A DNA stretch of 34,777 nucleotides, taken from contig JAJXVL010000003.1 of the NCBI GenBank assembly GCA_021782175.1, positions 1-34,777 on the forward strand. The letters run 5' to 3'. The number at the start of each line of letters is the position of its first letter. Within the stretch, counting starts at the first letter, position 1. The notes beneath the pieces were generated by a model. It worked only from the letters and a program-made list of their open reading frames with translations. It made no database searches and had not been told where the DNA came from. The stretch is from a bacterium. Lineage in GTDB: Bacteria; Patescibacteriota; Minisyncoccia; Phycocordibacterales; PALSA-1337. This document shows positions 1,469 to 17,753 of this stretch, piece after piece. The position numbers and the translations under genes are program-made.

Positions 1469-2005
1469 TCAATGTCGGAGCAATATCCGGATGTCCGTGA
1501 TGATCTCCGTGAAGTTGCGTGTAGAACGCTCCTCGAAGTCCTCCACATCATCCTTCTCAAATGGTACATACCAGAAGGCTTCGCGTCGCCCTTCTTTCCT
1601 TTCAGAAAGAGGGTCCATCATGGCGATAATGTGATCATAGATGGGCACATGCATGGCCCTGATGACCACATCGCAAACATACCCTCTGGCCTCAGAGTCG
1701 GCTCGTTGTGTCCTGTGAGAGAGATGCATCCCGTTGTCATCGGGGTAGTTTATTTCACTGAAACTGATCGGCTCCAGCAAATGCTCATCCCTGAACAAGA
1801 ACAAGGAGTATGTTCGCCGATCTGGCCTCAGCTCTCTGATCTGGAAGTTTATCGCGGCCTGTTCTTTTTCGTTGCGTAACATCATTTCGCCCTTCAGGGC
1901 GGGCAGACGCTGTTTACCCATGCAAGTTTTTTCCAACAGGAAGAAATAGCCAAAAGGCCACTCTCTCGAAGGCACGCCTTCCATTTCTTGTGACGCGGTA
2001 CTCAT
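1469..2005 (-). CDS. Hypothetical protein (orphan, 178 aa)
   Basis: Fills the gap between genes, has a strong SD (AAGGAGGT) just upstream of the ATG and a downstream terminator. No recognisable motif. Confidence 0.6.
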   Translation of the reverse strand: MSTASQEMEGVPSREWPFGYFFLLEKTCMGKQRLPALKGEMMLRNEKEQAAINFQIRELRPDRRTYSLFLFRDEHLLEPISFSEINYPDDNGMHLSHRTQRADSEARGYVCDVVIRAMHVPIYDHIIAMMDPLSERKEGRREAFWYVPFEKDDVEDFEERSTRNFTEIITDIRILLRH

Positions 2006-2097
2006 GGTCAGACCTCCTTTTTTTGGTTTTTTGGTACAAATTCAAGAATATCCTACCCTCGACACTGCAAGTAGTCAAAGTGTGTTATCTTATGTCC

Positions 2098-2961
2098 ATG
2101 AGTCATATTATTCTCGATGGTCGCATGGTGCGCGAAGCCAGACTGCCGGCTCTGAAGGAGTTTTTTGGTGGCTTGGCCAAGCCACCAGTCATGACTATTA
2201 TCCAGGTCGGCGATCGGCCTGATTCGACGGCCTTCATCAGAGCCAAGAGTACTTTTGCGACCAAGATCGGCGTGACCGTGAGACATATTCATCTGCCAGA
2301 AAGCATAACCCAAGCGGAACTCCTGGATGTCATTGCCGAAAACAATAGAGCAGTCGATGTTCAAGGGATCATCGTGCAATTACCTCTGCCTTTGTCATTG
2401 GATCAGGAAGCTGTGATTGAAGCTATCGATCCATCCAAGGATGCCGACGGTCTCTCGGCCGCCAATGTCAAACGCTGGCTCTCCGGTCATCCCGCGGCTC
2501 TCTATCCAGCCACTACCCGCGGTGTGCGCGAACTCCTGGCGCATTATCAGATTGAAATTTTTGGACGCAAAGTGGCGATCGTTGGCCGTTCAATGCTGGT
2601 GGGGAAGCCGCTCGCGGCCTGGGCCTTGAATGAGAACGCTACTGTCATCATTTGCCACAGCAAGACATCAGACTTGGTGGCGGAAACCAAACAAGCTGAC
2701 ATCGTGATTGTCGCCGCAGGCCGGCCGGGACTTGTCAGTGCCAAGCATCTCAAACCAGGAGCGGTCGTTGTGGATGTGGGAATCAATACGATTCAAGGAG
2801 AAAAACTCGAGGAAGAAGTCGGTCGGCGACTGGTCGGTGATGTGGATTTCGATTCGGCTAGCACGGTAGTTTCGGCGATTTCGCCTGTACCCGGCGGCGT
2901 CGGGCCAATGACGGTCCTGGCCCTTTTCGAAAATTTGGCTGACCTGATCAGGAAGTATTAA
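2098..2961 (+). CDS. folD: Bifunctional methylenetetrahydrofolate dehydrogenase/cyclohydrolase
   Basis: GIIVQLPLP, KDADG, VGRSMLVGKP, DVGIN, LVGDVDF, SPVPGGVGPMT. Start is 2098 (alternative 2092), just after an extended -10 (TG-T-TATCTT). Confidence 0.95.
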   Translation: MSHIILDGRMVREARLPALKEFFGGLAKPPVMTIIQVGDRPDSTAFIRAKSTFATKIGVTVRHIHLPESITQAELLDVIAENNRAVDVQGIIVQLPLPLSLDQEAVIEAIDPSKDADGLSAANVKRWLSGHPAALYPATTRGVRELLAHYQIEIFGRKVAIVGRSMLVGKPLAAWALNENATVIICHSKTSDLVAETKQADIVIVAAGRPGLVSAKHLKPGAVVVDVGINTIQGEKLEEEVGRRLVGDVDFDSASTVVSAISPVPGGVGPMTVLALFENLADLIRKY

Positions 2962-3010
2962 AGGATCACGCCTTCTTCCTCACACACGATCCTTGATCAG
3001 AGACGCGAGA

Positions 3011-3112
3011 GAGCCCTAGCATATCCTTTTGTACCAAAGCCGAAGGTCGTGCCGAAACAATCGATGAAGGTCCGGCAGGTTCGTTTTGGTACAAAAGGAT
3101 ATGCTAGGGCTC
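3011..3112. repeat. Long inverted repeat with perfect 28-bp arms between convergent folD and pilin genes
   Basis: GAGCCCTAGCATATCCTTTTGTACCAAA (3011-3038) pairs with TTTGGTACAAAAGGATATGCTAGGGCTC (3085-3112). There is an inner TGCCG/CGGCA stem. Confidence 0.9.
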
Positions 3113-3166
3113 AGCACCCAATGCTTCCGGTGATTCTGGTGTTGATGAAGAATGATGGCACACCTC

Positions 3167-3745
3167 CTAACTACCATTAGCTGTGCTATCACCCGCGCAA
3201 CCAGGTTGATTCCAATTATCTGGGCAACTTCCAGCATTGCATTGCTCGCTTTGGGAAGAGGCATTATTGCTGCCAATACAATAAAAGATTCCCTTATAAG
3301 GTAACCAAACCAGAAGTGACAGGCGAGGATAAGTCGGTGCCCCCCAGGAACTTTCCCAGAAGGTATAACCACCATCGGCACCATTCTCGAGATTGGCAAT
3401 CTTCTGGCAGGCCGCGATAAGGGCAGCCTGGTTCGAAGTGCCAGAATAATAACTGGAACAAGTGCTGGCGTCGCCGGGCCAGAGCGACGCATAGTGAGCT
3501 GAATAATTCTGGGTCGACAGGGAATCAGCCTGAGCCATGCGCATCATCGAAATGGCAGTCTCGATGATTGAAGTATCATTGGCTTTGCCGCGGGCGCTAT
3601 TCAGAGAGACCAAGATGACTGAAGCCAAAATAGCGATGATGGAGATGACCACCAGAAGTTCAATGAGCGTAAAACCACGACGCCATCCAGTCTCGGGCTG
3701 AAGTTGTCTTATTGCTCGAAAGTCGCGGGGACGATAGAATATCAT
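3167..3745 (-). CDS. Type IV pilin / prepilin N-terminal methylation domain protein
   Basis: RRG|FTLIELLVVISIIAILASVILVSLNSARGKA class III signal and a Cys-containing globular C-terminus. Confidence 0.88.
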   Translation of the reverse strand: MIFYRPRDFRAIRQLQPETGWRRGFTLIELLVVISIIAILASVILVSLNSARGKANDTSIIETAISMMRMAQADSLSTQNYSAHYASLWPGDASTCSSYYSGTSNQAALIAACQKIANLENGADGGYTFWESSWGAPTYPRLSLLVWLPYKGIFYCIGSNNASSQSEQCNAGSCPDNWNQPGCAGDSTANGS

Positions 3746-3788
3746 CGAGTCAATTATACATTATTATTAAACTAAGCTAATTAATATC

Positions 3789-4595
3789 ATGCACACTCCT
3801 TCGAAATTTTGGCAGACAGCTATGGCCTTCCTGGCCGCTCTGACGATTTTGGCCCTGGTCTTCATCGTCAAAGAGATCAAGGCTATTGGCTATGTCGGAG
3901 CCAATCCCAATCAGACCAATACTATTACAGTCAGTGGTACTGGTGACGCTTTTGCCGCGCCGGATGTGGCCACTTTTACTTTCACGGTGACACAGACCGC
4001 CAAGACGGTGGCTGATGCCCAGACCGCGGCTACCAGTAAGATCAATGCCGCTCTCAAAGCTGTCCGCGACGGCGGCGTGGCTGACAAGGATATCTCCACG
4101 CAGTCCTACAATATCAACCCGCATTATGAGTATCAGAATGCTGTTTGTCCGGCTTCGACCACTGTCGGCGGTACGACTTATTGTCCGCCTGGTCGTCAGG
4201 TCTTGACCGGTTATGATGTCTCGGAAACGGTTCAGGTCAAGGTTCGTGATTTGAGCCAGGCTGGCACGCTCTTCTCGGCCATTGGGGCCTTGAATGTGGA
4301 GAGCGTCAATGGTCTGACTTTCTCGGTGGATGATCCGACGGCTGTCCAGGCCGAGGCCCGCGCCAAGGCTATCGCTGACGCCAGGACCAAGGCCAAGGAA
4401 TTGGCGGAGCAGCTCGGTGTCGAGCTCGGTCCGGTCATGAGCTTCTCAGAGAATAATGGTTCGTACCCGCGGCCCATGGTCTACGGTATGGGTGTATCTG
4501 ATGTGATGTCATCCAAGGCAGTGATGGCTCCGGAAGTACCGACCGGTGAACAGAAGGTGACTGACAATGTCTCGATCACTTATGGGATTGAGTAG
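3789..4595 (+). CDS. SIMPL domain (DUF541) protein
   Basis: N-terminal TM, TITVSGTG..APDVA, DISTQSYNINP, ARAKAIADARTKAKELAEQLGVELG, GEQKVTDNVSITY. Confidence 0.9.
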   Translation: MHTPSKFWQTAMAFLAALTILALVFIVKEIKAIGYVGANPNQTNTITVSGTGDAFAAPDVATFTFTVTQTAKTVADAQTAATSKINAALKAVRDGGVADKDISTQSYNINPHYEYQNAVCPASTTVGGTTYCPPGRQVLTGYDVSETVQVKVRDLSQAGTLFSAIGALNVESVNGLTFSVDDPTAVQAEARAKAIADARTKAKELAEQLGVELGPVMSFSENNGSYPRPMVYGMGVSDVMSSKAVMAPEVPTGEQKVTDNVSITYGIE

Positions 4596-4619
4596 TTTGT
4601 AATCACTCAAATTCGAGCA

Positions 4620-4652
4620 AAAAGCCCCGCGACCAAAAAGCGCGGGTTTTTT
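4620..4652 (+). terminator. Intrinsic terminator after the SIMPL gene
   Basis: CCCGCG (4626-4631) / CGCGGG (4641-4646) stem followed by TTTTTT. Confidence 0.7.
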
Positions 4653-4691
4653 GTTGATTGATTGGTCAGTAGGGTCTTCGATAACGTTGTG

Positions 4692-4720
4692 TTGACGACC
4701 CCGCCAAACGGGTGTATTAT
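4692..4720 (+). promoter_or_regulatory. Sigma70-type promoter for secE-nusG-rplK
   Basis: TTGACG (4692-4697), 17 nt, TATTAT (4715-4720). Confidence 0.7.
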
Positions 4721-4764
4721 ATTGTTTGTAAGGCCCCGCAGGGGTTTTTTAATACTCCAAAAAC

Positions 4765-4944
4765 ATGGGAATCAATCAATACATCAAGGACACACAAGCA
4801 GAGATGAGTCATGTCAACTGGCCGACCAGGGAACAGACCATCGTCTTCACGGTCGAGGTCATCGTTATTTCTATTGCCACTGCCATCTTGCTCGGTGTTT
4901 CCGATTTTGTCTTTTCCAAGTTGCTCACGCTGCTTTTCCATTAA
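4765..4944 (+). CDS. secE: Preprotein translocase subunit SecE (59 aa, absent from the ORF track)
   Basis: Manual translation MGINQYIKDTQAEMSHVNWPTREQTIVFTVEVIVISIATAILLGVSDFVFSKLLTLLFH. Has the EMxxVxWPT motif and one TM, and lies directly upstream of nusG. Confidence 0.93.
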   Translation: MGINQYIKDTQAEMSHVNWPTREQTIVFTVEVIVISIATAILLGVSDFVFSKLLTLLFH

Positions 4945-4965
4945 TAGATCCATTTTTCCAAGACT

Positions 4966-5511
4966 ATGGCCAAACAACAAATCACTGGCGAGCGCAATTG
5001 GTACGCCATCCATACTTATGCCGGCTATGAGAATGCCGTGGCGCGCAATCTGAAGCAGCGCATCGAGTCTCTCGGCATGGACGACAAGATCTTTGCCGTA
5101 GTGGTACCGACCGAGAAGAAGATCAAGGTCAAGAGCGGCAAGCGCGTCGAAGAAGAAGAGAAGATCTACCCGGGTTATGTTCTGGTGGATATGGTGGTGA
5201 CGGATGATTCCTGGTATGTGGTACGCAACACGCCGCGCGTGACCGGCTTCGTCGGATCAGGCGTCTTCCCGGTGCCACTCGACAAGGCCGAAGTTGATTC
5301 TCTCTTTGCCCGTATGAATAGCTCTGAGACGGAACATGCGATCGACCTGGTGCCCGGGGACTTGGTCAAGGTCGCTGACGGACCCTTCAAGGATTTCGAG
5401 GGCAAGGTTGGCGAGGTTGATACTCAGCGCGGCAAGATCAAGGTCTTGGTCTCAATGTTCGGCCGCGAAACGCCGGTCGAGCTCGATTTCTTGCAAGTCA
5501 AGAAGGTATAA
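4966..5511 (+). CDS. nusG: Transcription termination/antitermination factor NusG
   Basis: WYAIHTYAGYE, YPGYVLV, VRNTPRVTGFVG, KOW motif DGPFKDFEG, FGRETPVELDF. Confidence 0.98.
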   Translation: MAKQQITGERNWYAIHTYAGYENAVARNLKQRIESLGMDDKIFAVVVPTEKKIKVKSGKRVEEEEKIYPGYVLVDMVVTDDSWYVVRNTPRVTGFVGSGVFPVPLDKAEVDSLFARMNSSETEHAIDLVPGDLVKVADGPFKDFEGKVGEVDTQRGKIKVLVSMFGRETPVELDFLQVKKV

Positions 5512-5560
5512 GCTAAGGTATATGGCGCTGCTTCAATAAGTTTCGCTTCCAATCAATAAT

Positions 5561-5983
5561 ATGGCCAAGAAAATCATCAAGAAAGTCAAAGTGATCGCTC
5601 CGGCCGGCAAAGCTACGCCGGCCCCACCACTCGGTCCGACCCTCGGTCAGGCCGGTGTGAATATCGGTGACTTCACCAAGAAGTTCAACGACGCCACCAA
5701 GGCGATGGGTAACGATATGATCCCGGTGGTCATCTCTGTATACGAAGATCGTACTTACGATTTTGTCCTGAAAACGCCGCCGACATCGAGCTTGATCTTG
5801 AAGGCTCTCGGCAAGGAAAAAGGCTCCGGCAAACCGAACCTCTCGAAGATCGGTACTCTCACCAAGGCTCAACTCAAGGAGATTGCTGAGAAGAAGCTGC
5901 CTGACTTGAATGCTACTGACATCGAGGCCGCCATGAAAGTCGTGGCTGGCACGGCTCGTCAGATGGGTGTCGATGTGAAGTAG
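5561..5983 (+). CDS. rplK: 50S ribosomal protein uL11
   Basis: [47 protein letters not shown]. Confidence 0.98.
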
Positions 5984-6034
5984 TGTCTAGATACTTTTTG
6001 ATTAGTTACAAATTGTAGTTTTTCGAGCAAGTAC

Positions 6035-6147
6035 AAAGCAGTCATGAAATTGGTCGAGAGGACCCCACGAGCGCGACTGGCGCGAGTGCAGAGGAATTTC
6101 CCAGCAGGGAAATTCCGTGTCCTCGAGGTCAATTTCATGACTGCTTT
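6035..6147. repeat. Nested inverted-repeat element (18-bp terminal arms, internal 10-bp hairpin); MITE/REP-like or structured RNA
   Basis: AAAGCAGTCATGAAATTG (6035-6052) / CAATTTCATGACTGCTTT (6130-6147). Inside are AGGAC/GTCCT, CGCG/CGCG and GGAATTTCCC-AGCA-GGGAAATTCC (6093-6116). Confidence 0.85.
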
Positions 6148-6188
6148 TGAGCTAAAGATAACTTCCTGGTCGTGAGATCGGAGTTTTT

Positions 6189-6698
6189 TTATTTCTTGAC
6201 CTCGTAAGTGAGGAAAAGGGTACCGGTGGCTGTGCGCTCAGTTTCGATGAGCTCTAAACGAACTTCCGGTATCTCTTCAAAAAGTTTGATGCCGCGACCA
6301 AAGAGGACCGGCTCAATTGTGATATAGAGCCGGTCGATGAGGCCAGCTTTGAGGAAGAGGGTATAGATAGAGGCGCCGCCGCAGATAGCTACTTCACGGA
6401 AGCCGCGGTCTTCGAGTTCATGGAGCAATTCGGCTGGAGTCTTGTTCGTTGTCTCCACACCAGCCGGTAAATCAGTGAACTGCCGGCGGCTGTAGACAAT
6501 ATTCAGCCGCTCCTTGAGCGGCCGACTACCGAAAGTCTGCCAAGTCTTGGATCCCATGATACAAACGCCCGCTGCCTTGGTCAGAGAGACGAAGCGAGTC
6601 TTGTCCTCCGGACTGGTCCAGGCTGTCGAAGGAGCCGTGGAATCCCTAGCGATGAAGCCGTCAGCGGAGAGGGCGGCGATCAGGAATGCTTTTATCAT
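6189..6698 (-). CDS. folA: Dihydrofolate reductase family protein
   Basis: IAALSADGFIA, CIMGSKTW, PLKERLNIVYSR, ICGGASIY, DRLYITI. Context next to thyA supports DHFR over a stand-alone RibD-C domain. Confidence 0.8.
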   Translation of the reverse strand: MIKAFLIAALSADGFIARDSTAPSTAWTSPEDKTRFVSLTKAAGVCIMGSKTWQTFGSRPLKERLNIVYSRRQFTDLPAGVETTNKTPAELLHELEDRGFREVAICGGASIYTLFLKAGLIDRLYITIEPVLFGRGIKLFEEIPEVRLELIETERTATGTLFLTYEVKK

Positions 6699-6736
6699 TG
6701 AGATGTATTATACTATTTTTTGTAATCATCACTACT

Positions 6737-7270
6737 ATGAAGAATGAAGAACACAAATACCACCGACCGTCCTGGGATGAATATTTCATGTCGATCGCTG
6801 AGCTAGTCGGTAGTCGCGGCACTTGTGATCGTGGTCGCTCCGGCTGTGTCATTGTCAGGGACAAACGTATCTTGGTGACGGGCTATGTCGGCTCACCGGC
6901 TGGTCTGCCGCATTGTGATGAAGTCGGTCACGAAATGCACAAGGTGGTCAACGAGGATGGCTCCACTTCTGAGCACTGTATCCGCACCGCTCACGCCGAG
7001 CAGAATGCTATTGCCCAAGCCGCCAAGATCGGCATTTCGGTGGATGGCGCCACGGTCTATTGTCACATGACGCCTTGCTATACCTGCGCCAAGATCCTGA
7101 TCAACGCCGGCATCAAGAAGGTCGTGGCCGCCAAGGACTATCATGCCAGCAAACGTACCAAGGAGATTTTCGAAGCCTGTGGTCTGAAATTGCAGATCGT
7201 CAACAAGGAAGTAGAGAACTACAACCAAGATCGTTTTGCCGCCAAAGTGGAAGAAGCCGCCCAGAAATAA
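6737..7270 (+). CDS. Deoxycytidylate (dCMP) deaminase, ComEB-like
   Basis: RPSWDEYFM, HAEQNAI and PCYTC zinc-deaminase motifs. Start set at ATG 6737. Confidence 0.92.
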   Translation: MKNEEHKYHRPSWDEYFMSIAELVGSRGTCDRGRSGCVIVRDKRILVTGYVGSPAGLPHCDEVGHEMHKVVNEDGSTSEHCIRTAHAEQNAIAQAAKIGISVDGATVYCHMTPCYTCAKILINAGIKKVVAAKDYHASKRTKEIFEACGLKLQIVNKEVENYNQDRFAAKVEEAAQK

Positions 7271-7279
7271 TCAGCTCAG

Positions 7280-7702
7280 ATGAAAATCCGCATCAAAAAA
7301 CTTCATCCTGACGCGCAGATTCCGCAGTATGCCAATCCGGGCGATGCAGGCATGGACCTCTTCACAGTAGAACCCTTTGAGCTAGAGCCGGGCGAACGCA
7401 AATCAGTGCCCCTCGGTCTGGCTCTGGAAATTCCAGACGGTTATGTGGGTCTGATCTGGGACAAGAGCGGCCTTTCCCACAAGTATGGTCTCAAGAACTT
7501 TGGCGGCGTGATCGATTCCGGTTATCGCGGGGAAGTGCATGCCGGCATCATGAATCTCTCAGACAAATATTTCAGTTTTGAAAAAGGCCACAAGATCGCC
7601 CAACTCCTGATCCAAAAAGTAGACCGGATCTCCTTCGAGGAAGCCGAATCTCTCTCAGAAACTTCGCGTGGTCAGAACGGTTTTGGTAGCAGTGGCCGCT
7701 AA
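7280..7702 (+). CDS. dut: dUTP diphosphatase (trimeric)
   Basis: GDAGMDL, KSGL, GVIDSGYRGE, IAQL, RGQNGFGSSG (all five motifs). Confidence 0.97.
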   Translation: MKIRIKKLHPDAQIPQYANPGDAGMDLFTVEPFELEPGERKSVPLGLALEIPDGYVGLIWDKSGLSHKYGLKNFGGVIDSGYRGEVHAGIMNLSDKYFSFEKGHKIAQLLIQKVDRISFEEAESLSETSRGQNGFGSSGR

Positions 7703-7711
7703 ACAAAAGCT

Positions 7712-8560
7712 CTAGACAGCCATTTTGGCCTTGATCGGCGGATGGTGCTGGTAGTTTTCTAGCTTGACCCAGTTGTAGATATCATCTGGTGTCTGGAGTT
7801 TTTGCACCTCTATATCAGAGAGGCTCTTGAGTTCCGGATTGAGCCAGAGCTTGGGCAGAGGTAGAGGTTCGCGGGAGAGCTGCTCCTTCACGGCCTCGAA
7901 ATGATCATGATAGATGTGGACATCGCCGAGAGTCAGGATGAGCTCGTCCGCTATGAGGCCGGTCATCTGAGCTACGAGGTGGAGCATCAGAGCGTAGGAA
8001 GCGATATTGAAAGGCACCCCCAGGAACATGTCACAGCTACGCTGGAACATGTGCAGGGAGAGCTTGCCGTTGGTCACGAAGAATTGGTAGATGATGTGGC
8101 AGGGCGGCAGAGCCATCTCATCCAGCTCCCCGGGGTTCCAGGCTGTGACGATCAAACGGCGGTCATTGGGATCTTTTTTGATTTTCTCAATTACCTGGGC
8201 GATCTGATCCACGGTGGTGCCGTCCGGTTTGCGCCAGGATCGCCATTGGACGCCGTAGATGCGACCGAGGTCACCATCGAATTTGGCTTTGGGTTTCCAA
8301 TAATCAGCGTTGGCATTGGCTGTCCAGATTTCGCAGCCAAGTTTCCTGAGAACATTGTTGTCGCTGTTGCCGGACATGAACCAGAAGAGTTCCGCGGCTA
8401 CACTGCGGAAAGCCAGCTTCTTGGTGGTGGTGGCGGGGAATCCGTCAGCCATGCGGAAACGTAGCTGTTTGGTGAATAGGCCTCTGGTCCAGCCATTGCG
8501 GCCTTCACGATCGGCACCGGTCTCCATAATCTCTCTGAGAAGTGAGTTGTAGTTGGTCAT
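7712..8560 (-). CDS. thyA: Thymidylate synthase
   Basis: GDLGRIYGVQWRSW, RRLIVTAWNP, MALPPCH, QRSCDMFLGVPFNIASY, GDVHIY, IKAKMAV. Start set at 8560 (MTNYNSLL). Confidence 0.97.
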   Translation of the reverse strand: MTNYNSLLREIMETGADREGRNGWTRGLFTKQLRFRMADGFPATTTKKLAFRSVAAELFWFMSGNSDNNVLRKLGCEIWTANANADYWKPKAKFDGDLGRIYGVQWRSWRKPDGTTVDQIAQVIEKIKKDPNDRRLIVTAWNPGELDEMALPPCHIIYQFFVTNGKLSLHMFQRSCDMFLGVPFNIASYALMLHLVAQMTGLIADELILTLGDVHIYHDHFEAVKEQLSREPLPLPKLWLNPELKSLSDIEVQKLQTPDDIYNWVKLENYQHHPPIKAKMAV

Positions 8561-8633
8561 GGACTTATTATACCTGCTTGTTTTGTTTTTGGCAGTTGCT
8601 CTGTTAGGATTATTCCAGAAAATATCACCCACT

Positions 8634-9296
8634 ATGAATAAACCAAAATTCATCACTATCGAGGGGGGAGAAGGCTCAGGCAAATCTTCACTCTGGCAAG
8701 CCATGAAAGCCGAGTTTGGCGATCAGGTCTTGTTCACTCGTGAACCGGGTGGTTCGCCATATGGTGAAGCTATCCGTGAGACCACGCTCAAGAATCCTCT
8801 GGCTGCTACGGCGCCGGCAGAAACAACCCTCTGTCTCATGTTTGCCGCCCGTTTCGACCATTTGGTCAACTTGGTCAGGCCGGCGCTTGCTTCAGGGAAA
8901 TCGGTGGTGTCGGACCGCTTCGATGCCTCATCGTACGCTTACAATGTCCACGCTCAATCCGGCGGCTTGGTCAGCAGACTCTTCTGGCAGTTGCGCCGTC
9001 AGTTGATGATCTTGCCGGACCTCTATGTCTACATTGATGTGGAGCCGGAGGAGGGTATGCGTCGAGCCCAGAAACGCAATCAGGCTGGTTCGAGTAGTGG
9101 CCATTATGACCACTTCGATGATCGGGCCGTGGCCTTCCATCAGAAAGTCCATGAGGGTTACGAAAAGTTTTTTGGCCGGAGGCGTTGGCTCACTCGCCGA
9201 CTGCTCGTGCCTATGGTGAGGATCGATGCCAATCGTCCGTTTGCCGAGGTCAAAGCGGACTTCATGGCCTTGATGAAGGAGCAGTTGGGTCTGTGA
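8634..9296 (+). CDS. tmk: Thymidylate (dTMP) kinase
   Basis: FITIEGGEGSGKS P-loop, TREPGG, LMFAAR, SDRFDASSYAY, PDL, IDA. Start set at 8634. Confidence 0.93.
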   Translation: MNKPKFITIEGGEGSGKSSLWQAMKAEFGDQVLFTREPGGSPYGEAIRETTLKNPLAATAPAETTLCLMFAARFDHLVNLVRPALASGKSVVSDRFDASSYAYNVHAQSGGLVSRLFWQLRRQLMILPDLYVYIDVEPEEGMRRAQKRNQAGSSSGHYDHFDDRAVAFHQKVHEGYEKFFGRRRWLTRRLLVPMVRIDANRPFAEVKADFMALMKEQLGL

Positions 9297-9325
9297 TCTT
9301 CCTAGACATTTCTATATTGGATAGC

Positions 9326-9359
9326 AGTCTGTTGCTCGAGTAGGGTAGCAGACTTTTTC
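9326..9359 (+). terminator. Intrinsic terminator after tmk
   Basis: AGTCTGTTGCTC / GGGTAGCAGACT stem followed by TTTT. Confidence 0.6.
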
Positions 9360-9382
9360 TTTGACCATGATACAATCTAGCC

Positions 9383-10606
9383 ATGAAAGACCCTCAAATC
9401 AAAAAGCTTATAGTCACTGAGAAGAAACGCCAAAAGAGCGTGGTCAATCTGATCGCTTCAGAGAACTACGTCTCGGCCGATGTCCTAGAAGCTCTCGGTT
9501 CGGAATTGACGAACAAATATGCCGAAGGTTACCCGGGGCGACGCTACTATGGTGGCAATTTGATCACCGACAAGATCGAGCGGTTGTGTGTCGAGCGAGC
9601 CCTGAAACTTTTCAAGTTGGGCGCCTCGGAATGGCATGTCAATGTCCAGCCACTCTCCGGTTCGCCGGCCAATCTGGCTGTCTATACCGCACTGGTACCT
9701 TTGGGTGGCAAGATTATGGGCATGTCGCTTGATCATGGCGGTCATCTCACTCATGGTCACAAAGTATCTATGACGGGTAAGTCCTGGATCCAAATACCGT
9801 ACGGTATCGATCCGATCACGGAGACGCTCAACTATGATCAGCTCTTGGAACAGGCTATCGAGGCCAAGCCGCAAATCATCGTGGCGGGCTATACGGCTTA
9901 TCCGCGCATAATCGATTGGGCCAAATTGCGGAATATCGCTGATGCCTCCGGAGCTTTACTCATGGTCGATATGTCTCATATTGCCGGTCTGGTAGCTGGT
10001 GGTGTCTATCCGCCACCTTTCTCATATGCTGATATTGTGACCACGACGACACACAAAACCTTGCGCGGGCCACGCTCGGCCATGATCTTCGTGCGCAAGG
10101 ATGATCGCGAACTAGACAAGAAGATAGACAAAGCGGTTTTTCCTGGTTTGCAGGGTGGTCCGCACTTGAACCAGATTGCTGCTGTGGCGGTGGCTCTGCG
10201 CGAAGCCGATACGCCGGCTTTCCGACGCTACGCTCATCAAGTTCTCAAGAATGCTCAAGTACTCGCAGGTGAACTCAAACAGCGTGGTTGGCGGCTGATC
10301 TCAGGTGGCACTGATTCGCACTTGATCCTCGTTGATACCTGGATGGCCAATGTCATCAATGAAAAAGGCGCTGGCGGCGTACCTGGCAGTTTGGCCAGTG
10401 AAGTATTGGAGAAAGAAGGCATCATCGTCAACAAAAACGCTATTCCTTTTGATAGTCGGCCGCCGGCCGATCCCTCCGGTATCCGGTTGGGCACAGCCGC
10501 CGAGACTACGCGTGGCCGCAAGGAAGCTGATTTTCACAAGATTGCCGTGCGCATTGATGAGCTCTTGAAGAAACAGACCGCCAAGAAAAGCAGCTCGAAA
10601 AAATAG
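9383..10606 (+). CDS. glyA: Serine hydroxymethyltransferase
   Basis: LIASENY, NKYAEGYPGRRYYGG, GGHLTHG, TTTHKTLRGPR (PLP Lys), VFPGLQGGP, SGIRLGT. Confidence 0.98.
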   Translation: MKDPQIKKLIVTEKKRQKSVVNLIASENYVSADVLEALGSELTNKYAEGYPGRRYYGGNLITDKIERLCVERALKLFKLGASEWHVNVQPLSGSPANLAVYTALVPLGGKIMGMSLDHGGHLTHGHKVSMTGKSWIQIPYGIDPITETLNYDQLLEQAIEAKPQIIVAGYTAYPRIIDWAKLRNIADASGALLMVDMSHIAGLVAGGVYPPPFSYADIVTTTTHKTLRGPRSAMIFVRKDDRELDKKIDKAVFPGLQGGPHLNQIAAVAVALREADTPAFRRYAHQVLKNAQVLAGELKQRGWRLISGGTDSHLILVDTWMANVINEKGAGGVPGSLASEVLEKEGIIVNKNAIPFDSRPPADPSGIRLGTAAETTRGRKEADFHKIAVRIDELLKKQTAKKSSSKK

Positions 10607-10945: not shown

Positions 10946-10993
10946 TAATAATATTTATCGCCAGTGCCGAGTGGCTCTGTTACAATGGCATTC

Positions 10994-12763
10994 ATGCAAA
11001 TGAAAGAAGTTTTGATACAGAGGTTGTCTGCTCTAGCCGAGGAGGCCGGTTTGGCTGCCGATCTGGTCACGGTTGGTTATCCGGAAGATGCCACCAACGG
11101 TGATTTCACCACCAATCTGGCTCTGGTAGGAGCCAAATCACTCAAACTCTCCCCCAGAGCTTTGGCGGACAAGCTCATAGCCGCCGCCACGGGGAAGTGG
11201 CCTGATTTCGTTGCTGAAGTTTCGGTCGCCGGGCCAGGCTTCATCAACTTCAAGATCAAGCCCGATTCTCTGACCAAACAAATCATCATGATGGCTTCGC
11301 ACATCAAGTCTGGTGCCAAGTCGGGTGATTGGTTGAAATCCAATTTGGCGGAAATGCGCGCCGGGGAGGCTGGTGCCATCACGGCTCCGGTGATGATCGA
11401 GTATACTGATCCAAATATTTTCAAAGTTTTTCATATCGGCCATTTGATGTCGAATACGATCGGCGAATCCATATCGCGCTTGATCGAAGCAAGCGGCACG
11501 CCAGTCATCCGTTTGTGTTACCCGGCTGACATTGGTCTCCATGTGGCCAAGGCTGTCTGGGCCGTCCAGAAAAATCTATCTGAAATGCCAGCTGATCAGG
11601 CACCCATTGCTCTGCGTACCGCCTTCTTGGGACGAATGTATGTTCTCGGCACCCAGACTTATGATGCCGATCCGGTCGCCAAGGCCGAGATCGATGAATT
11701 GAACAAGAAGTTGTATGAGGGTACGGACCCGGCGGTTCAGAAGATCTATCATCGAGGCCGCACCTGGAGTCTAGATCATTTCGAGGAGCTCTACCGGATT
11801 CTGGGTACCAAGTTCGATACTTATTTCTATGAGAGCAACATGGCCCCGATCGGTCTCTCGGTGGTCCGCCAAAATCTCGGCAAAGTTTTTGTCGAGAGTG
11901 ATGGAGCTATCGTTTTCCACGGGGAAGAACACGGTCTGCACACACGTGTCTTCGTGAATTCGCACGGTCTGCCGACTTATGAGGCCAAGGACTTGGGCTT
12001 GAATATCACCAAATTCGAGCACTATCCAGAAGCGGCCCAGTCCATCATCGTGACGGCCAGCGAACAGAACGAGTATTTCAAAGTAATGCTCAAAGTTTTG
12101 AGTCTGGTGGATGAGCGTGATGGGTCCAAGACCAAACATATCGGTCACGGTATGATGCGTTTCGCCTCCGGCAAGATGTCCTCGCGCACTGGCAATGTCA
12201 TCACCGCGGAAAGTTTGCTCTCTGATATGCGCGAATTGGTGCGAGCCAAGATGGCTGAGCGGGCCGAGACTCTGGATCCCGGCGAAGCTGATAAGATTGC
12301 TACCCAGGTAGCCATTGCCGCTATCAAATACACTATCCTGCGCCAGACTGTCGGCAGTGATATCGTTTTTGATTCGGCCAAGTCGATTTCTTTCGAGGGC
12401 GATTCTGGCCCATACCTGCAATACGCGGCGGTGCGTGCGGCGGCCGTCCTGGCCAAGGCAAACGCCGCGGGCATCAAGCCGGCCGAGAAAATTCCTGCCA
12501 GCATGGTGCCGGGCCAACTGGAGCGGCTCCTGGGGCGGTTCGCGGATGTTATGGCTCGGGCCGGCCTCGAGCAGGCGCCGCAATTAGTGGCTACTTATCT
12601 CATTGAGCTCGCTGCGGCCTTCAATAGTTTCTATAGTGATCATACGATCGCCGATCCGGCTGAGCCGCAGGCCCCGTATCGCGTGGCTCTGGTCCAAACT
12701 TTCCTCGCGGCCATGACTGACGGTTTGTGGCTCTTGGGTATCACGGTTCCGCGGTTGATGTGA
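10994..12763 (+). CDS. argS: Arginine--tRNA ligase
   Basis: GDFTTN, AGPGFINF, EYTDPN..FHIGHL, KMSSRTG, FEGDSGPYLQYA, LLGITVPRLM. Start set at 10994 after TG-T-TACAAT. Confidence 0.96.
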   Translation: MQMKEVLIQRLSALAEEAGLAADLVTVGYPEDATNGDFTTNLALVGAKSLKLSPRALADKLIAAATGKWPDFVAEVSVAGPGFINFKIKPDSLTKQIIMMASHIKSGAKSGDWLKSNLAEMRAGEAGAITAPVMIEYTDPNIFKVFHIGHLMSNTIGESISRLIEASGTPVIRLCYPADIGLHVAKAVWAVQKNLSEMPADQAPIALRTAFLGRMYVLGTQTYDADPVAKAEIDELNKKLYEGTDPAVQKIYHRGRTWSLDHFEELYRILGTKFDTYFYESNMAPIGLSVVRQNLGKVFVESDGAIVFHGEEHGLHTRVFVNSHGLPTYEAKDLGLNITKFEHYPEAAQSIIVTASEQNEYFKVMLKVLSLVDERDGSKTKHIGHGMMRFASGKMSSRTGNVITAESLLSDMRELVRAKMAERAETLDPGEADKIATQVAIAAIKYTILRQTVGSDIVFDSAKSISFEGDSGPYLQYAAVRAAAVLAKANAAGIKPAEKIPASMVPGQLERLLGRFADVMARAGLEQAPQLVATYLIELAAAFNSFYSDHTIADPAEPQAPYRVALVQTFLAAMTDGLWLLGITVPRLM

Positions 12764-14225: not shown

Positions 14226-17200
14226 ATGTCAAACAACCCGTCCGTTTCTCCCAATCCCGAACCGACTGACAAGCCGGCTCGCGTCCTGCGCGAAGAAGCC
14301 ACGCTCAAAAAATGGCAGGAGCAGGATATTTTTGGCCAGACGCTGAAGAAAGCTTCGCCGCGCGGCGAATTTACTTTCTATGAAGGACCGCCGACGGCCA
14401 ATGGTCATCCGGGCATTCACCATCTCGAAGCCCGTGCTTTCAAGGATGCTATTCCGCGCTATCGCACCATGCGTGGCTATCATGTCCGCCGCAAGGGAGG
14501 TTGGGATACACATGGTCTGCCGGTGGAGCTCCAGGTGGAGAAACAGCTCGGTCTCAAATCCAAGAAGGAGATCGAGTCCTACGGTGTGGAGGCTTTCAAT
14601 GAGAAGTGCAAGGAGTCCGTCTGGACTTATGTGCATGAATGGGAAGACTTCACCCGCCGCATGGGGTACTGGGTGGACCTCAATGATCCTTATGTTACCT
14701 ACAAGCCCCAATATATAGAATCAGTCTGGAATGTGATCAAAACCGCTGATGACAAAGGTTTGGTCTACAAGGATTACAAGGTCGTGCCTTGGTGTCCGCG
14801 TTGTGGTACGGCCCTGTCATCGCACGAGCTCGCTCAGGGCTATGCCGATGTGAAGGATATGTCGGTGACGGTGAAGTTTAAGGCTAAGCCAAATCAAAAA
14901 ATTGGGAATCTTGTTACTGACGACAAAACTTTTATTTTGGCTTGGACGACTACACCCTGGACATTACCTGGCAATGTTGGATTGGCTGTTAACCCAAATA
15001 TTCAATATGTCCAGATAGATATGGATAAACAGTCCGTTGATGATAAAGGCAAGTACATTTTAGCTTCTGATCGAATGATTGTTTTGGAGGAGAAAGCAAA
15101 GAAAAAAGACACAACAAAGCCTTTCTATATAGATAACTTAATTTATGGAAAAGAATTAGTCGGCCTCGAATACGAGCCGCTCTACCCATTCTTGCGAGAC
15201 AATATCTCGCATCATGAGAAGGACAAGCTCGTGAATGCCTTCAAGGTCTATGCGGCTGATTTTGTCACCACGACTGACGGTACGGGCATCGTGCACACGG
15301 CGGTGATGTACGGTCAGGACGACTTCGAACTCGGCACCAAGGTTGGTTTGCCGAAGCATCATCTCGTCCACGAAGACGGCACTTTCAAGAAGGAGTGCGG
15401 CTTCCTGGCGGGAGCTTTTGTGAAAGACGAAGGGACCGAGGTAGCCATCATCAAGGATCTCGCCGGCCGCGGCCTCTTGTTCGCCAAGGAGAAGTATCAG
15501 CACAGTTATCCATTTTGCTGGCGCTGCAAAACACCGCTCATCTACTTTGCCCGCGATAGCTGGTATATCCGCATGTCTGAATTGCGCGAGAAGATGATGG
15601 CTGAAAATGAAAAAATCCACTGGGAACCAGGCTATATCAAGGAGGGCCGTTTCGGTGAATGGCTCCGCGAGGTCAAGGATTGGGCTATCTCTCGCGAGCG
15701 CTATTGGGGTACGCCGCTGCCGATCTGGACTTGTCATCAATGTCACGCCCGCAAGGTCGTTGGCTCGATCGCTGATGTCACGCAGACGCCCAAGAACCAT
15801 TATTTCGTCATGCGCCATGGTGAGGCTGAGGATAATGTGAAGAATATCCTGAACTCTGACGAAAAAGTCGCCAACCATCTCACGGCTCATGGCCGAGCCA
15901 AAGCCACCGCTACGGCAGAAACCCTCAAGGCTCAAAAAATCGACTTGATCATTGCTTCGCCTTTGCCGCGTACACAGGAGACAGCCAAGATTGTCCAGCA
16001 GACTGTCGGTTTGCCGGCTGACAAACTGATTACCGACAAGCGTATTCGCGAGATGGGTCTGGGTGAGCTCGATGGTCATAGTCTGGATGAGTTCATGAAA
16101 GTTTTTCCTATGAGTGTGGGTCGCTTCGATCCGGCGCCGCGGGGCATTGAGAGTTATGCCGCGCTCAAGAAGCGCATGGGTGACTTCCTCTATGACATCG
16201 AGAGCAAATACGCCGGCAAAAATATCCTCATCGTCACGCACGGTAGTCCGGCCATGATGCTCATGGCCGCAGCCGCTGGCTGGGATCGGAGCGAGACTAT
16301 CGCTTATGAAAAGGATCATTATATCCACAAGGCCGAGGCCCGCCCACTCGATTTCCGCATCGTGCCGCACAATACGGAGTATGAGCTGGATCTGCACAAG
16401 CCTTTTATCGATGAGGTGAAGCTTACTTGCGCTTGTGGTGGGGAAATGCACCGCGCCAAGGAAGTCTTGGATGTTTGGTTCGATTCCGGCTCCATGCCTT
16501 TTGCGCAGGATCATTATCCTTTCGGAGGGTCGAAAGCCCGCGGTTGGCGCGCTTGGTTCGGCGGCGCCAAGGAACAAAAGATAGCTTATCCGGCCGACTT
16601 CATCTCTGAAGCCATCGACCAGACGCGTGGTTGGTTCTACACTCTGCATGCCGTCGGAGCTATTCTCGGCAAGGGTCGGGCCTACAACAATGTCATCTGT
16701 CTCGGCCATATTCTCGACGCCGAGGGCAAGAAGATGTCCAAGTCACTCGGCAATATCGTTGACCCGATGATGCTCATGGATCGTTATGGTGCCGACGCCC
16801 TGCGTTTCTGGATGTATTCCATCAACCAGCCGGGCGAGTCCAAGAACTTCGATGAGAAGACCGTCGACGAGGTGGTCAAGAAAGTTTTCAACCTAGCGGC
16901 CAATGTGGCTTCGTTCTACGAAATGTACGCCAAGCCCGAGGTGATCGTATCGCGGGATTCAAAGAATGTGCTCGATCGCTGGATCATCGCCAAGCTTGAT
17001 GAGTTGACCGTGACCGTAACCAAACATCTCGAAAGTTATGTTTTTTTCGAGCCGACGCGTGCTATCCGCGATTTCATTGCCGACTTGTCGCAGTGGTATC
17101 TCCGCCGTTCGCGTGACCGCTTCAAGGAAGAGGGCAGCGGCAGAGTGGAAGCTCTGCAGACTACGCTTTATTTCCTGTTGACGCTCACCAAGATCATGGC

Positions 17201-17753
17201 ACCATTCACGCCATTCTTTGCCGAGGAGCTCTATCAGAATGCCGGTGGGACCAAGGACAGTGTGCATCTGGAAGATTGGCCGGAGGCAGGAAAAATTGAT
17301 CAGACCCTCATCAATGATATGGAACTGGTACGCAAGGCTAGTTCGCTTGGTTTGGAGGCGCGCATGAAAGCCAAGTTGAATGTCCGCCAGCCTCTAGCCA
17401 CTCTCTTTGTCAAAGACCAGAAGTACCAGAAGCTTGAACCGGCTCTGGTGGAGCTCATTCAGGCCGAAGTGAATGTGAAGCGAGTTGTCTTCGATTTGAC
17501 TCATGCCGAGGAAGTAGTCCTTGATCTCGAGATCACCCCCGCTCTCAAGGAAGAAGGGGAACTGCGCGAACTTCTGCGCAAGATCCAGGATCTGCGCAAG
17601 GAAAAAGGTCTGACCGTCAATGACATGGCGATTCTCTCAGTCCCTGAAGAATTCAAGGCACTGATCTCCAAGAATGAGACCGAAATCAAGCGTCTGACCA
17701 AACTGGTCAAACTTGAGCCTGGCGCGACTCTGGACTTGCGCCGCAGCGAGTAG
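14226..17753 (+). CDS. ileS: Isoleucine--tRNA ligase (type 2) with inserted histidine-phosphatase domain
   Basis: EGPPTANG, GWDTHGLPVE, WTTTPWTLP, DWAISRERYWGTPLPIW, DVWFDSGSMP, DQTRGWFY, KMSKS. Internal RHG...THG domain. Confidence 0.96.
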   Translation: MSNNPSVSPNPEPTDKPARVLREEATLKKWQEQDIFGQTLKKASPRGEFTFYEGPPTANGHPGIHHLEARAFKDAIPRYRTMRGYHVRRKGGWDTHGLPVELQVEKQLGLKSKKEIESYGVEAFNEKCKESVWTYVHEWEDFTRRMGYWVDLNDPYVTYKPQYIESVWNVIKTADDKGLVYKDYKVVPWCPRCGTALSSHELAQGYADVKDMSVTVKFKAKPNQKIGNLVTDDKTFILAWTTTPWTLPGNVGLAVNPNIQYVQIDMDKQSVDDKGKYILASDRMIVLEEKAKKKDTTKPFYIDNLIYGKELVGLEYEPLYPFLRDNISHHEKDKLVNAFKVYAADFVTTTDGTGIVHTAVMYGQDDFELGTKVGLPKHHLVHEDGTFKKECGFLAGAFVKDEGTEVAIIKDLAGRGLLFAKEKYQHSYPFCWRCKTPLIYFARDSWYIRMSELREKMMAENEKIHWEPGYIKEGRFGEWLREVKDWAISRERYWGTPLPIWTCHQCHARKVVGSIADVTQTPKNHYFVMRHGEAEDNVKNILNSDEKVANHLTAHGRAKATATAETLKAQKIDLIIASPLPRTQETAKIVQQTVGLPADKLITDKRIREMGLGELDGHSLDEFMKVFPMSVGRFDPAPRGIESYAALKKRMGDFLYDIESKYAGKNILIVTHGSPAMMLMAAAAGWDRSETIAYEKDHYIHKAEARPLDFRIVPHNTEYELDLHKPFIDEVKLTCACGGEMHRAKEVLDVWFDSGSMPFAQDHYPFGGSKARGWRAWFGGAKEQKIAYPADFISEAIDQTRGWFYTLHAVGAILGKGRAYNNVICLGHILDAEGKKMSKSLGNIVDPMMLMDRYGADALRFWMYSINQPGESKNFDEKTVDEVVKKVFNLAANVASFYEMYAKPEVIVSRDSKNVLDRWIIAKLDELTVTVTKHLESYVFFEPTRAIRDFIADLSQWYLRRSRDRFKEEGSGRVEALQTTLYFLLTLTKIMAPFTPFFAEELYQNAGGTKDSVHLEDWPEAGKIDQTLINDMELVRKASSLGLEARMKAKLNVRQPLATLFVKDQKYQKLEPALVELIQAEVNVKRVVFDLTHAEEVVLDLEITPALKEEGELRELLRKIQDLRKEKGLTVNDMAILSVPEEFKALISKNETEIKRLTKLVKLEPGATLDLRRSE

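Follow-up and report, generated by a model that had tools for sequence, protein, structure and literature searches.

A histidine phosphatase nested in the zinc knuckle of a type-2 isoleucyl-tRNA synthetase from Patescibacteria

The stretch of DNA analysed here (the window) comprises 34,777 nucleotides of contig JAJXVL010000003.1, from a Patescibacteria genome assembly (GCA_021782175.1) of 546 kb in 63 contigs that is 84% complete. On its forward strand lies an ileS gene whose product, an isoleucyl-tRNA synthetase (IleRS) of 1175 amino acids (aa), holds a second enzyme: the residues lodged between the two halves of its zinc knuckle are, by sequence, motifs and predicted fold, a complete histidine phosphatase of branch 1, akin to the small enzymes PhoE, PspA and GpgP. 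This nested phosphatase-IleRS combination is real, old and conserved; it is not an intein, an assembly artefact or a recent transfer. As the best overall explanation we favour, at a probability of about 0.45, the capture in the IleRS zinc knuckle of an active phosphatase that would work together with tRNA charging.

The features of the gene are given below. Homolog counts, here and throughout, refer to an alignment of 111 relatives of at least 1100 aa, which are 49-100% identical to the window protein across aa 490-760; PmIleRS2 is the Priestia megaterium type-2 enzyme, and AF2 stands for AlphaFold2.

14226..17753, + strand: ileS, type-2 isoleucyl-tRNA synthetase of 1175 aa with nested phosphatase, stop codon present (open reading frame)
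14412..14423, + strand: class I signature motif G63-I-H-H66, the swapped G/AXHH form of HXGH (sequence; G-I-H-H in 101/111 homologs)
15732..15743, + strand: zinc knuckle, first Cys pair C503 and C506, N-terminal shoulder of the insertion site (Cys in 110/111 homologs each; aligns to the C..C of PmIleRS2)
15792..16361, + strand: nested insert, aa 523-712, extra relative to solved IleRS2 (no counterpart in any solved IleRS; AF2)
15804..16298, + strand: His_Phos_1 (PF00300), aa 527-691 (Pfam E 5.9e-33, 114.6 bits against a cut-off of 21.7)
15813..15821, + strand: RHG motif, with R530, the nucleophile H531 and G532 (invariant in 111/111 homologs)
15969..15971, + strand: R582, second phosphate-binding Arg, in SPLPR (invariant in 111/111 homologs)
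16050..16052, + strand: E609, expected general acid, in IREM (invariant in 111/111 homologs; aligns to the conserved Glu of PhoE 1ebb)
16239..16241, + strand: H672, second catalytic His, in VTHG (invariant in 111/111 homologs)
16428..16436, + strand: zinc knuckle, second Cys pair C735 and C737, C-terminal shoulder of the insertion site (Cys in 110/111 homologs each)
16731..16745, + strand: KMSKS loop, aa 836-840 (homolog alignment)

The host is classed as a type-2 IleRS of the GXHH signature type, because it scores 885.7 bits against the NCBIfam ileS model (TIGR00392, cut-off 621.4), carries both GIHH and KMSKS, and has IleRS2 structures as its closest solved relatives (8c8w, 8c8u and 1ile; best E 6.7e-234). 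Pfam recognises tRNA-synt_1 on both sides of the insert (first at aa 26-520), together with Anticodon_1 and DUF5915. Within KMSKS, all 111 homologs have K836, S838 and K839, while M837 is found in 110 of them and S840 in 102. In PMC10485003, the swapped G/AXHH motif is tied to mupirocin hyper-resistant IleRS2; the names CP core, CP1, CP2 and CP3 for IleRS elements are those used in PMC11685878. The AF2 model of the full-length protein has a mean predicted local distance difference test (pLDDT) of 86.4 and a predicted template modelling score (pTM) of 0.77. A Gly/Trp-rich synthetase loop (aa 768-782, at about 16527-16571 in the window) falls below a pLDDT of 50 and into a gap of the PmIleRS2 alignment.

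The solved type-2 enzymes (8c8w, 8c8u, 1ile) align to aa 21-526 of the window protein and then again from about aa 714, so that some 190 window residues face a short linker of a few residues. As they align on both sides of these extra residues, canonical IleRS lacks the phosphatase domain, as had been claimed in a first inspection of the letters and their translation (the sequence-only reading). The insert lies between C-x2-C (C503, C506) and C-x-C (C735, C737), and therefore at the tip of the catalytic-domain zinc knuckle, some 120 residues before KMSKS. We take this knuckle to be the CP3 of the structural papers.

That reading had also described an intact PGM-like (phosphoglycerate mutase-like) histidine phosphatase of about 190 aa, and this description agrees with the Pfam match, the fold and the in-frame position. 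His_Phos_1 is flanked by two tRNA-synt_1 blocks; for the stretch 15792-16360 taken alone, it is matched with an E value of 1.5e-34 (119.8 bits), and this is the sole PF00300 match in the 546-kb genome. All the motifs that had been quoted were located: WTCHQC (aa 501-506), YFVMRHGEA (526-534, with RHG at nucleotides 15813-15821), ASPLPRTQET (577-586), IREMGLGELDG (607-617), ILIVTHG (667-673), DLHKPFID (722-729) and CACGG (735-739). Folded alone, the insert gives a pLDDT of 94.4 and a pTM of 0.91 with AF2, in an alpha/beta phosphoglycerate-mutase-like fold. Foldseek matches it to PspA 4ij6, PhoE 1h2e (template modelling score, TM, 0.81) and GpgP 4qih (TM 0.81), each with a probability of 1.00, as well as to HFP 9mmh and CobC.

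The catalytic set R530/H531/G532/R582/E609/H672 aligns with the same residues of PhoE, and all six positions are invariant in 111/111 homologs. The roles given to them above are those established for histidine phosphatases at large. In contrast, the cap region is poorly conserved and the sequence varies freely between the catalytic motifs, and hence offers no hint of a tight small-molecule pocket. Host and guest enzymes both retain all their catalytic residues, and we infer that the insert is an active phosphomonoesterase. In the full-length model, the junction blocks (aa 511-530 and 701-730) have pLDDT values of 92-96, so that the phosphatase is predicted to be rigidly joined to the knuckle, with no floppy tether. 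A complex prediction for docking of the insert on the synthetase body, from the pieces aa 1-522, 713-1000 and 523-712, gave a median of 0.54 against 0.46 for the control, and no docking is deduced from this difference.

Several observations bear on the reality and age of the arrangement. The insert is in frame and free of stop codons, the window contains no N, and base composition is even: the insert has a GC of 0.532, against 0.520 for the remainder of the gene, and at third codon positions the values are 0.621 and 0.624. A conserved P-H-N precedes T717, and its H aligns with a residue of the insert-less PmIleRS2. The 120 best database relatives, drawn from NCBI, JGI, ENA and Logan assemblies, all list PF00300 together with IleRS domains, and because the four sources are independent an assembly artefact is excluded. 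An intein had already been doubted in the sequence-only reading, and is rejected: the Pfam scan of the window IleRS finds no Hint or intein family, and the confident phosphatase fold accounts for the whole insert. A CAAD-type insertion (Curt1-like, with transmembrane helices) is likewise rejected, the insert being a soluble alpha/beta enzyme fold; the likeness to CAAD lies in the mode of evolution only.

The distribution of the insert in the phylum was determined with aa 490-760 (both junctions and the insert) as a query against 401 sampled genomes, the unpublished genome G154 being counted in these tallies only. Full-length matches in frames of about 1120-1270 aa (E <= 1e-42) were found in 31 genomes: 7/7 of the same order, 12/16 of the same class (one of them with a 942-aa frame) and 12 from other classes. 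Six additional genomes have full-length matches at 29-38% identity, and ten genomes, all of family f20, encode an IleRS with two phosphatase domains in frames of 1466-1553 aa (for example L035:2349-6749, in G327). Beyond the phylum sample, the insert was compared, without a profile, with 1.84 billion representative proteins, and 12,128 matches were obtained (E <= 0.001); some of the best 150 are domains embedded in IleRS, and others are free proteins (about 185-215 aa, 37-41% identity).

Free homologs are found close to ileS in one family. In the three genomes of family f16, which belong to the same class, IleRS is about 1035 aa long and has no insert, and each of the three (L034, L037, L038) has a free His_Phos gene that shares the strand of argS and ileS, stands between the two and precedes ileS by 0.85 to about 2.6 kb. 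Its product is 33-37% identical to the insert (tblastn). The argS gene upstream of it was identified by tblastn with the window ArgRS in all three loci, and by Pfam as well in L034. The window has the same order of argS and ileS, with two unrelated small genes separating them:

10964..12763, + strand: argS, conserved upstream neighbour of ileS (open reading frame)

The 20 best free His_Phos loci were fetched; two of them are from f16, L034 being the third locus of that family, and one further locus gave no tblastn match to the insert. In L034 (genome G298), a NUDIX gene (2270-2809) overlaps by 4 nucleotides the stop of the insert-less ileS (2806-5913), an arrangement that suggests translational coupling.

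Related domains occur inside other synthetases. Nineteen long frames with a His_Phos_1 match were cut out and profile-scanned. Three of them (L016, L017, L023) use a second IleRS insertion site, between the catalytic and anticodon-binding domains. Valyl-tRNA synthetase (ValRS) is the host in 10 loci, at a site equivalent by Pfam profile coordinates; its identity was established by NCBIfam in 5 loci and by the ValRS C-terminal arm in 5, with 2 in both sets, and is only probable for L027 and L028. A short class II alanyl-tRNA synthetase (AlaRS) carries the full phosphatase catalytic set in its catalytic domain (L021:3833-6169, in G100; NF002436, 875 bits against 529), and this form is colinear in 5/5 sampled f56 genomes (L021, L057-L060). 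Among the long frames, the host of every nested insertion is a synthetase of class I or class II. Non-synthetase partners are also found, as terminal fusions of His_Phos with 2-Hacid_dh, NUDIX or VTT(DedA) domains (L029, L030, L031, L032).

Some hosts carry more than one guest. Apart from the f20 enzymes, a partial IleRS of 1161 aa (P0128), found among the 150 best matches of the protein search, contains four His_Phos_1 domains in tandem. A GNAT acetyltransferase lies beside the nested phosphatase in some IleRS and ValRS (L017, L033, P0196), and a domain resembling the IS200-type transposase Y1_Tnp is found in frame inside phosphatase-bearing IleRS (P0196, aa 340-461; L023:1156-5400, aa 299-375). 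The P0196 IleRS thus combines a Y1_Tnp-like domain, a phosphatase and a GNAT domain. It had been proposed that the synthetase might serve as a landing pad for passenger enzymes; one, two or four His_Phos copies, sometimes with GNAT, at the same IleRS region, together with the ValRS and AlaRS inserts, lend this proposal support.

The relationships among these domains were examined with a quick maximum-likelihood tree of 109 domains. Since the search was short, the alignment short and divergent, and two rows labelled as free (P0171, P0183) are in fact IleRS fragments, we rely on it for the general pattern only. In one cluster of 63 rows (SH-like approximate likelihood ratio test, SH-aLRT, 87), free proteins are intermixed with inserts of the IleRS zinc knuckle, and the members of this cluster may have a single origin. 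The phosphatases of the terminal fusions (2-Hacid_dh, NUDIX, VTT) form a distant group. In the tandem IleRS, copy 1 and copy 2 are not sisters, which leaves local duplication as their source unsupported. The ten ValRS inserts as one clade are rejected by the approximately unbiased (AU) test (p 0.00045), and capture or exchange has therefore occurred several times.

What the nested enzyme does is approached here by weighing five readings, the first of which is the one we favour. A tie of the phosphatase to tRNA charging is favoured because the catalytic site is invariant, because the nested hosts are all synthetases and because a free copy lies by ileS in a sister family; it is favoured also because synthetases of either class have repeatedly acquired domains of this clade, which elsewhere are free genes. 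That there is a functional tie of any kind we hold to be slightly better than an even bet. In the mechanism that we propose, the synthetase-held phosphatase would free the CCA end of the incoming tRNA from a 3'(2')-phosphate or a pyrophosphate. Blocks of this type might be left by pyrophosphorylating toxSAS toxins (toxic small alarmone synthetases) or by tRNA nucleases, and clearing them would allow charging to resume. As is reported (10.1101/2021.04.30.441581; 10.1101/2024.07.05.602228), toxSAS pyrophosphorylate the tRNA 3'-CCA end and thereby halt aminoacylation. A nucleotide by-product of the synthetase reaction would be the second candidate substrate. That the substrate is a phosphate-bearing block to aminoacylation, the blocked tRNA 3' end being the leading candidate, is a specific proposal that we regard as quite unlikely to be correct as it stands.

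The tie to charging has a number of points to its discredit. Free homologs work outside any synthetase. IleRS offers two insertion sites, ValRS and AlaRS still others, and the copies number from one to four, which argues against a single precise geometry toward the CCA end. Moreover, the domain is carried by one to few synthetases per genome, while damage at 3' ends would hit all tRNAs, and we know of no member of this phosphatase family that acts on RNA ends. Genome G077, of the same class and 100% complete, lacks the insert and gives no His_Phos_1 match at all, and the function is therefore dispensable there. Among the free His_Phos loci from other classes, 0/17 have an IleRS within about 9 kb; a free copy near ileS being found only in f16, the linkage is local to this class. 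Finally, synthetases are known as generally permissive hosts for insertions (PMC13114784; for CAAD, PMC4893482).

Alternatively, and this is the main rival, the domain may be a passenger, that is, a broad PhoE-like metabolite phosphatase with a job unrelated to aminoacylation, lodged in permissive loops of essential synthetases. In minimal genomes, a large and constitutively expressed host would ensure its co-expression and make it hard to lose. The interleaving of free and nested forms in the domain tree fits such a history, and the variety of hosts and sites, with the tandem copies, suggests that insertion is tolerated and that no one geometry is required. The same loops accept GNAT and IS200-type Y1_Tnp-like domains, and the 17 free homologs of other classes keep no company with ileS. 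There are precedents too: synthetases are reported as preferred insertion hosts in general (PMC13114784), and CAAD is a free-standing gene that synthetases captured repeatedly (PMC4893482). However, a passenger does not readily account for nested insertions that, in the long frames examined, are confined to synthetases, the fusions to 2-Hacid_dh, NUDIX and VTT being terminal and of a distant clade; nor for the free copy that adjoins ileS in 3/3 f16 genomes. The metabolic roles that can be tested are unsupported as well (a 2,3-bisphosphoglycerate-independent phosphoglycerate mutase, iPGM, is encoded next to enolase, and no SerC was found). We therefore consider a mere passenger rather unlikely, and return to the tie to charging as the preferred reading.

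The metabolic candidates were weighed against the gene content of the genome itself. A stand-in for a missing phosphoglycerate mutase is rejected: the insert is not the cell's enzyme for this step, because the iPGM beside enolase (on C44; TIGR01307, 591.6 bits against 330.65) provides it. Phosphoglycerate kinase was not found in this 84% complete genome. The models of the 2,3-bisphosphoglycerate-dependent mutase (dPGM) also speak against it, the best, NF038349 (dPGM_arch), giving 93.6 against 225 and the others far less. A PspA-type phosphoserine phosphatase is unsupported (NF045917, 58.7 against 350). No SerC was found: the sole Aminotran_5 gene resembles a NifS/IscS cysteine desulfurase, and at 84% completeness the absence is unproven; the sole 2-Hacid_dh gene of the genome is below all cut-offs. 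A substitute pyrophosphatase is a weak candidate, in view of a Pyrophosphatase-family gene elsewhere in the genome (38.7 bits against 23.5, with no NCBIfam name). With cobC (78.2 against 162.9) and SixA (41 against 74.5) the insert likewise stays below the NCBIfam equivalog cut-offs, and its substrate can therefore not be read from any characterised subfamily. Of the overall picture drawn in the sequence-only reading, the domain, its catalytic set, the lack of intein features and the absence from canonical IleRS all stand, and the functions put forward there (repair of tRNA 3'-phosphate ends, removal of an inhibitory phospho-metabolite, a passenger enzyme) stay conjectural.

In a third scenario, the domain would clean up nucleotides, removing phosphate from AMP, Ap4A-type side products or 3'-phosphorylated adenine nucleotides, and would so relieve product inhibition or feed nucleoside salvage. 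It is true that ATP, AMP and pyrophosphate are the only small molecules common to IleRS, ValRS and AlaRS, that a NUDIX gene overlaps the ileS stop codon in G298, and that NUDIX-His_Phos fusions exist in the phylum. However, the NUDIX-fused phosphatase is of a distant clade, the window gene downstream of ileS is recO and not a NUDIX gene, and a pyrophosphatase-like gene is present elsewhere in the genome, so that we judge this scenario improbable.

A self-directed protein phosphatase, which would dephosphorylate the synthetase, for instance at a Ser in or near KMSKS, against or under the control of a kinase, is more improbable still. The superfamily includes the protein phosphatases SixA, PGAM5 and Sts-1, HipA-type toxin kinases phosphorylate other synthetases, and GNAT domains, which are able to modify proteins, lie beside the phosphatase in some IleRS and ValRS; but the SixA model is far from its cut-off, and free homologs exist. 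A purely structural module, kept for stability, oligomerisation or tRNA binding while catalysis is irrelevant, has hardly any likelihood, even though the family is commonly dimeric and tandem copies might pair within one chain: six catalytic positions invariant in 111/111 homologs, in a domain that otherwise varies freely, are the signature of selection on catalysis. The reading that we keep is therefore that of an active phosphatase which would serve tRNA charging.

Few enzymes have been studied as thoroughly as the aminoacyl-tRNA synthetases, in which additional domains mostly serve translation quality control or localisation. Foreign domains in them are a known theme, of which the nested histidine phosphatase is a new form. 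As a guest, it resembles the small branch-1 histidine phosphatases in fold, size and the catalytic R-H-G/R/E/H residues: PhoE/YhfR (1h2e, 1ebb), PspA (4ij5, 4ij6) and GpgP Rv2419c (4qih, 4pz9), and also the riboflavin-pathway HFP (9mmh) and CobC (6e4b, 6nru), with TM values of 0.73-0.81 across the group. All of these are free-standing, whereas the window phosphatase is nested in a synthetase and stays below every NCBIfam equivalog cut-off. As a host, the window IleRS shares with PmIleRS2 (8c8u-8c8w; PMC10485003) the domain order, the zinc-knuckle Cys, GXHH and KMSKS, and carries 190 aa of phosphatase where the solved IleRS2 have a short linker.

The closest parallel in mode is CAAD in the class I synthetases of cyanobacteria. 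There too, a free family was recruited repeatedly and independently into internal sites of several synthetases, and was possibly passed between them (PMC4893482). In contrast, CAAD is a non-catalytic membrane anchor with class I hosts only, while the window guest is soluble, has an intact active site and has kin in class II AlaRS as well. The NCBIfam model NF040702 (isoleucine--tRNA ligase, N-acetyltransferase domain-containing) represents another IleRS with a foreign enzyme domain, and relatives of the window protein carry GNAT beside the phosphatase; curators had therefore already noticed foreign domains in IleRS. The window protein itself has no GNAT domain (Pfam) and scores 311.6 bits against the cut-off of 1999. 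Neither full-text searches of the literature nor term searches within PMC13752280 and PMC13114784 turned up an account of a histidine phosphatase lodged in a synthetase, subscription journals and supplements being outside this scope.

Either a phosphate-removal step tied to tRNA charging has so far gone unrecognised, or these minimal genomes offer a striking example of an enzyme that hitch-hikes. Should the phosphatase de-block tRNA 3' ends, this would be a new step of tRNA repair, embedded in a synthetase. The arrangement also concerns the biology of ultra-small symbionts, in which the machinery of translation is otherwise reduced. It bears on annotation as well, as database names hide the phosphatase: the relatives of the window IleRS are labelled only 'class I tRNA ligase family protein', and the organisms are named Paceibacteria, Parcubacteria, Taylorbacteria or Patescibacteria, depending on the source.

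The gene content of the window is otherwise that of ordinary housekeeping. Genes for folate and thymidylate metabolism are clustered compactly at 1990-10603 (folD, DHFR, dCMP deaminase, dUTPase, thyA, tmk and glyA), and these are joined by argS and ileS, and by recO, a class II synthetase, metS, ssb, recA, efp and ftsK. Some observations concern the tRNAs of the same genome. A need for special end processing of Ile and Ala tRNAs excised from an rRNA spacer was envisaged and finds no support here, the tRNA-Ile(GAU) gene lying about 1 kb from tRNA-Leu and no tRNA-Ala being assembled. A tRNA-Ile with anticodon UAU is encoded at C20:17708-17783, and no member of the TilS family (PF01171) turned up in the genome, at 84% completeness; decoding of AUA may therefore proceed here without lysidine, as is reported for Mycoplasma mobile (PMC3575796). 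By a crude check of their ends, 13/28 tRNA genes lack an encoded CCA, among them Ile(GAU) and all three Val, together with Leu, Arg, Pro, Thr, Cys, Lys, Gly and Ser.

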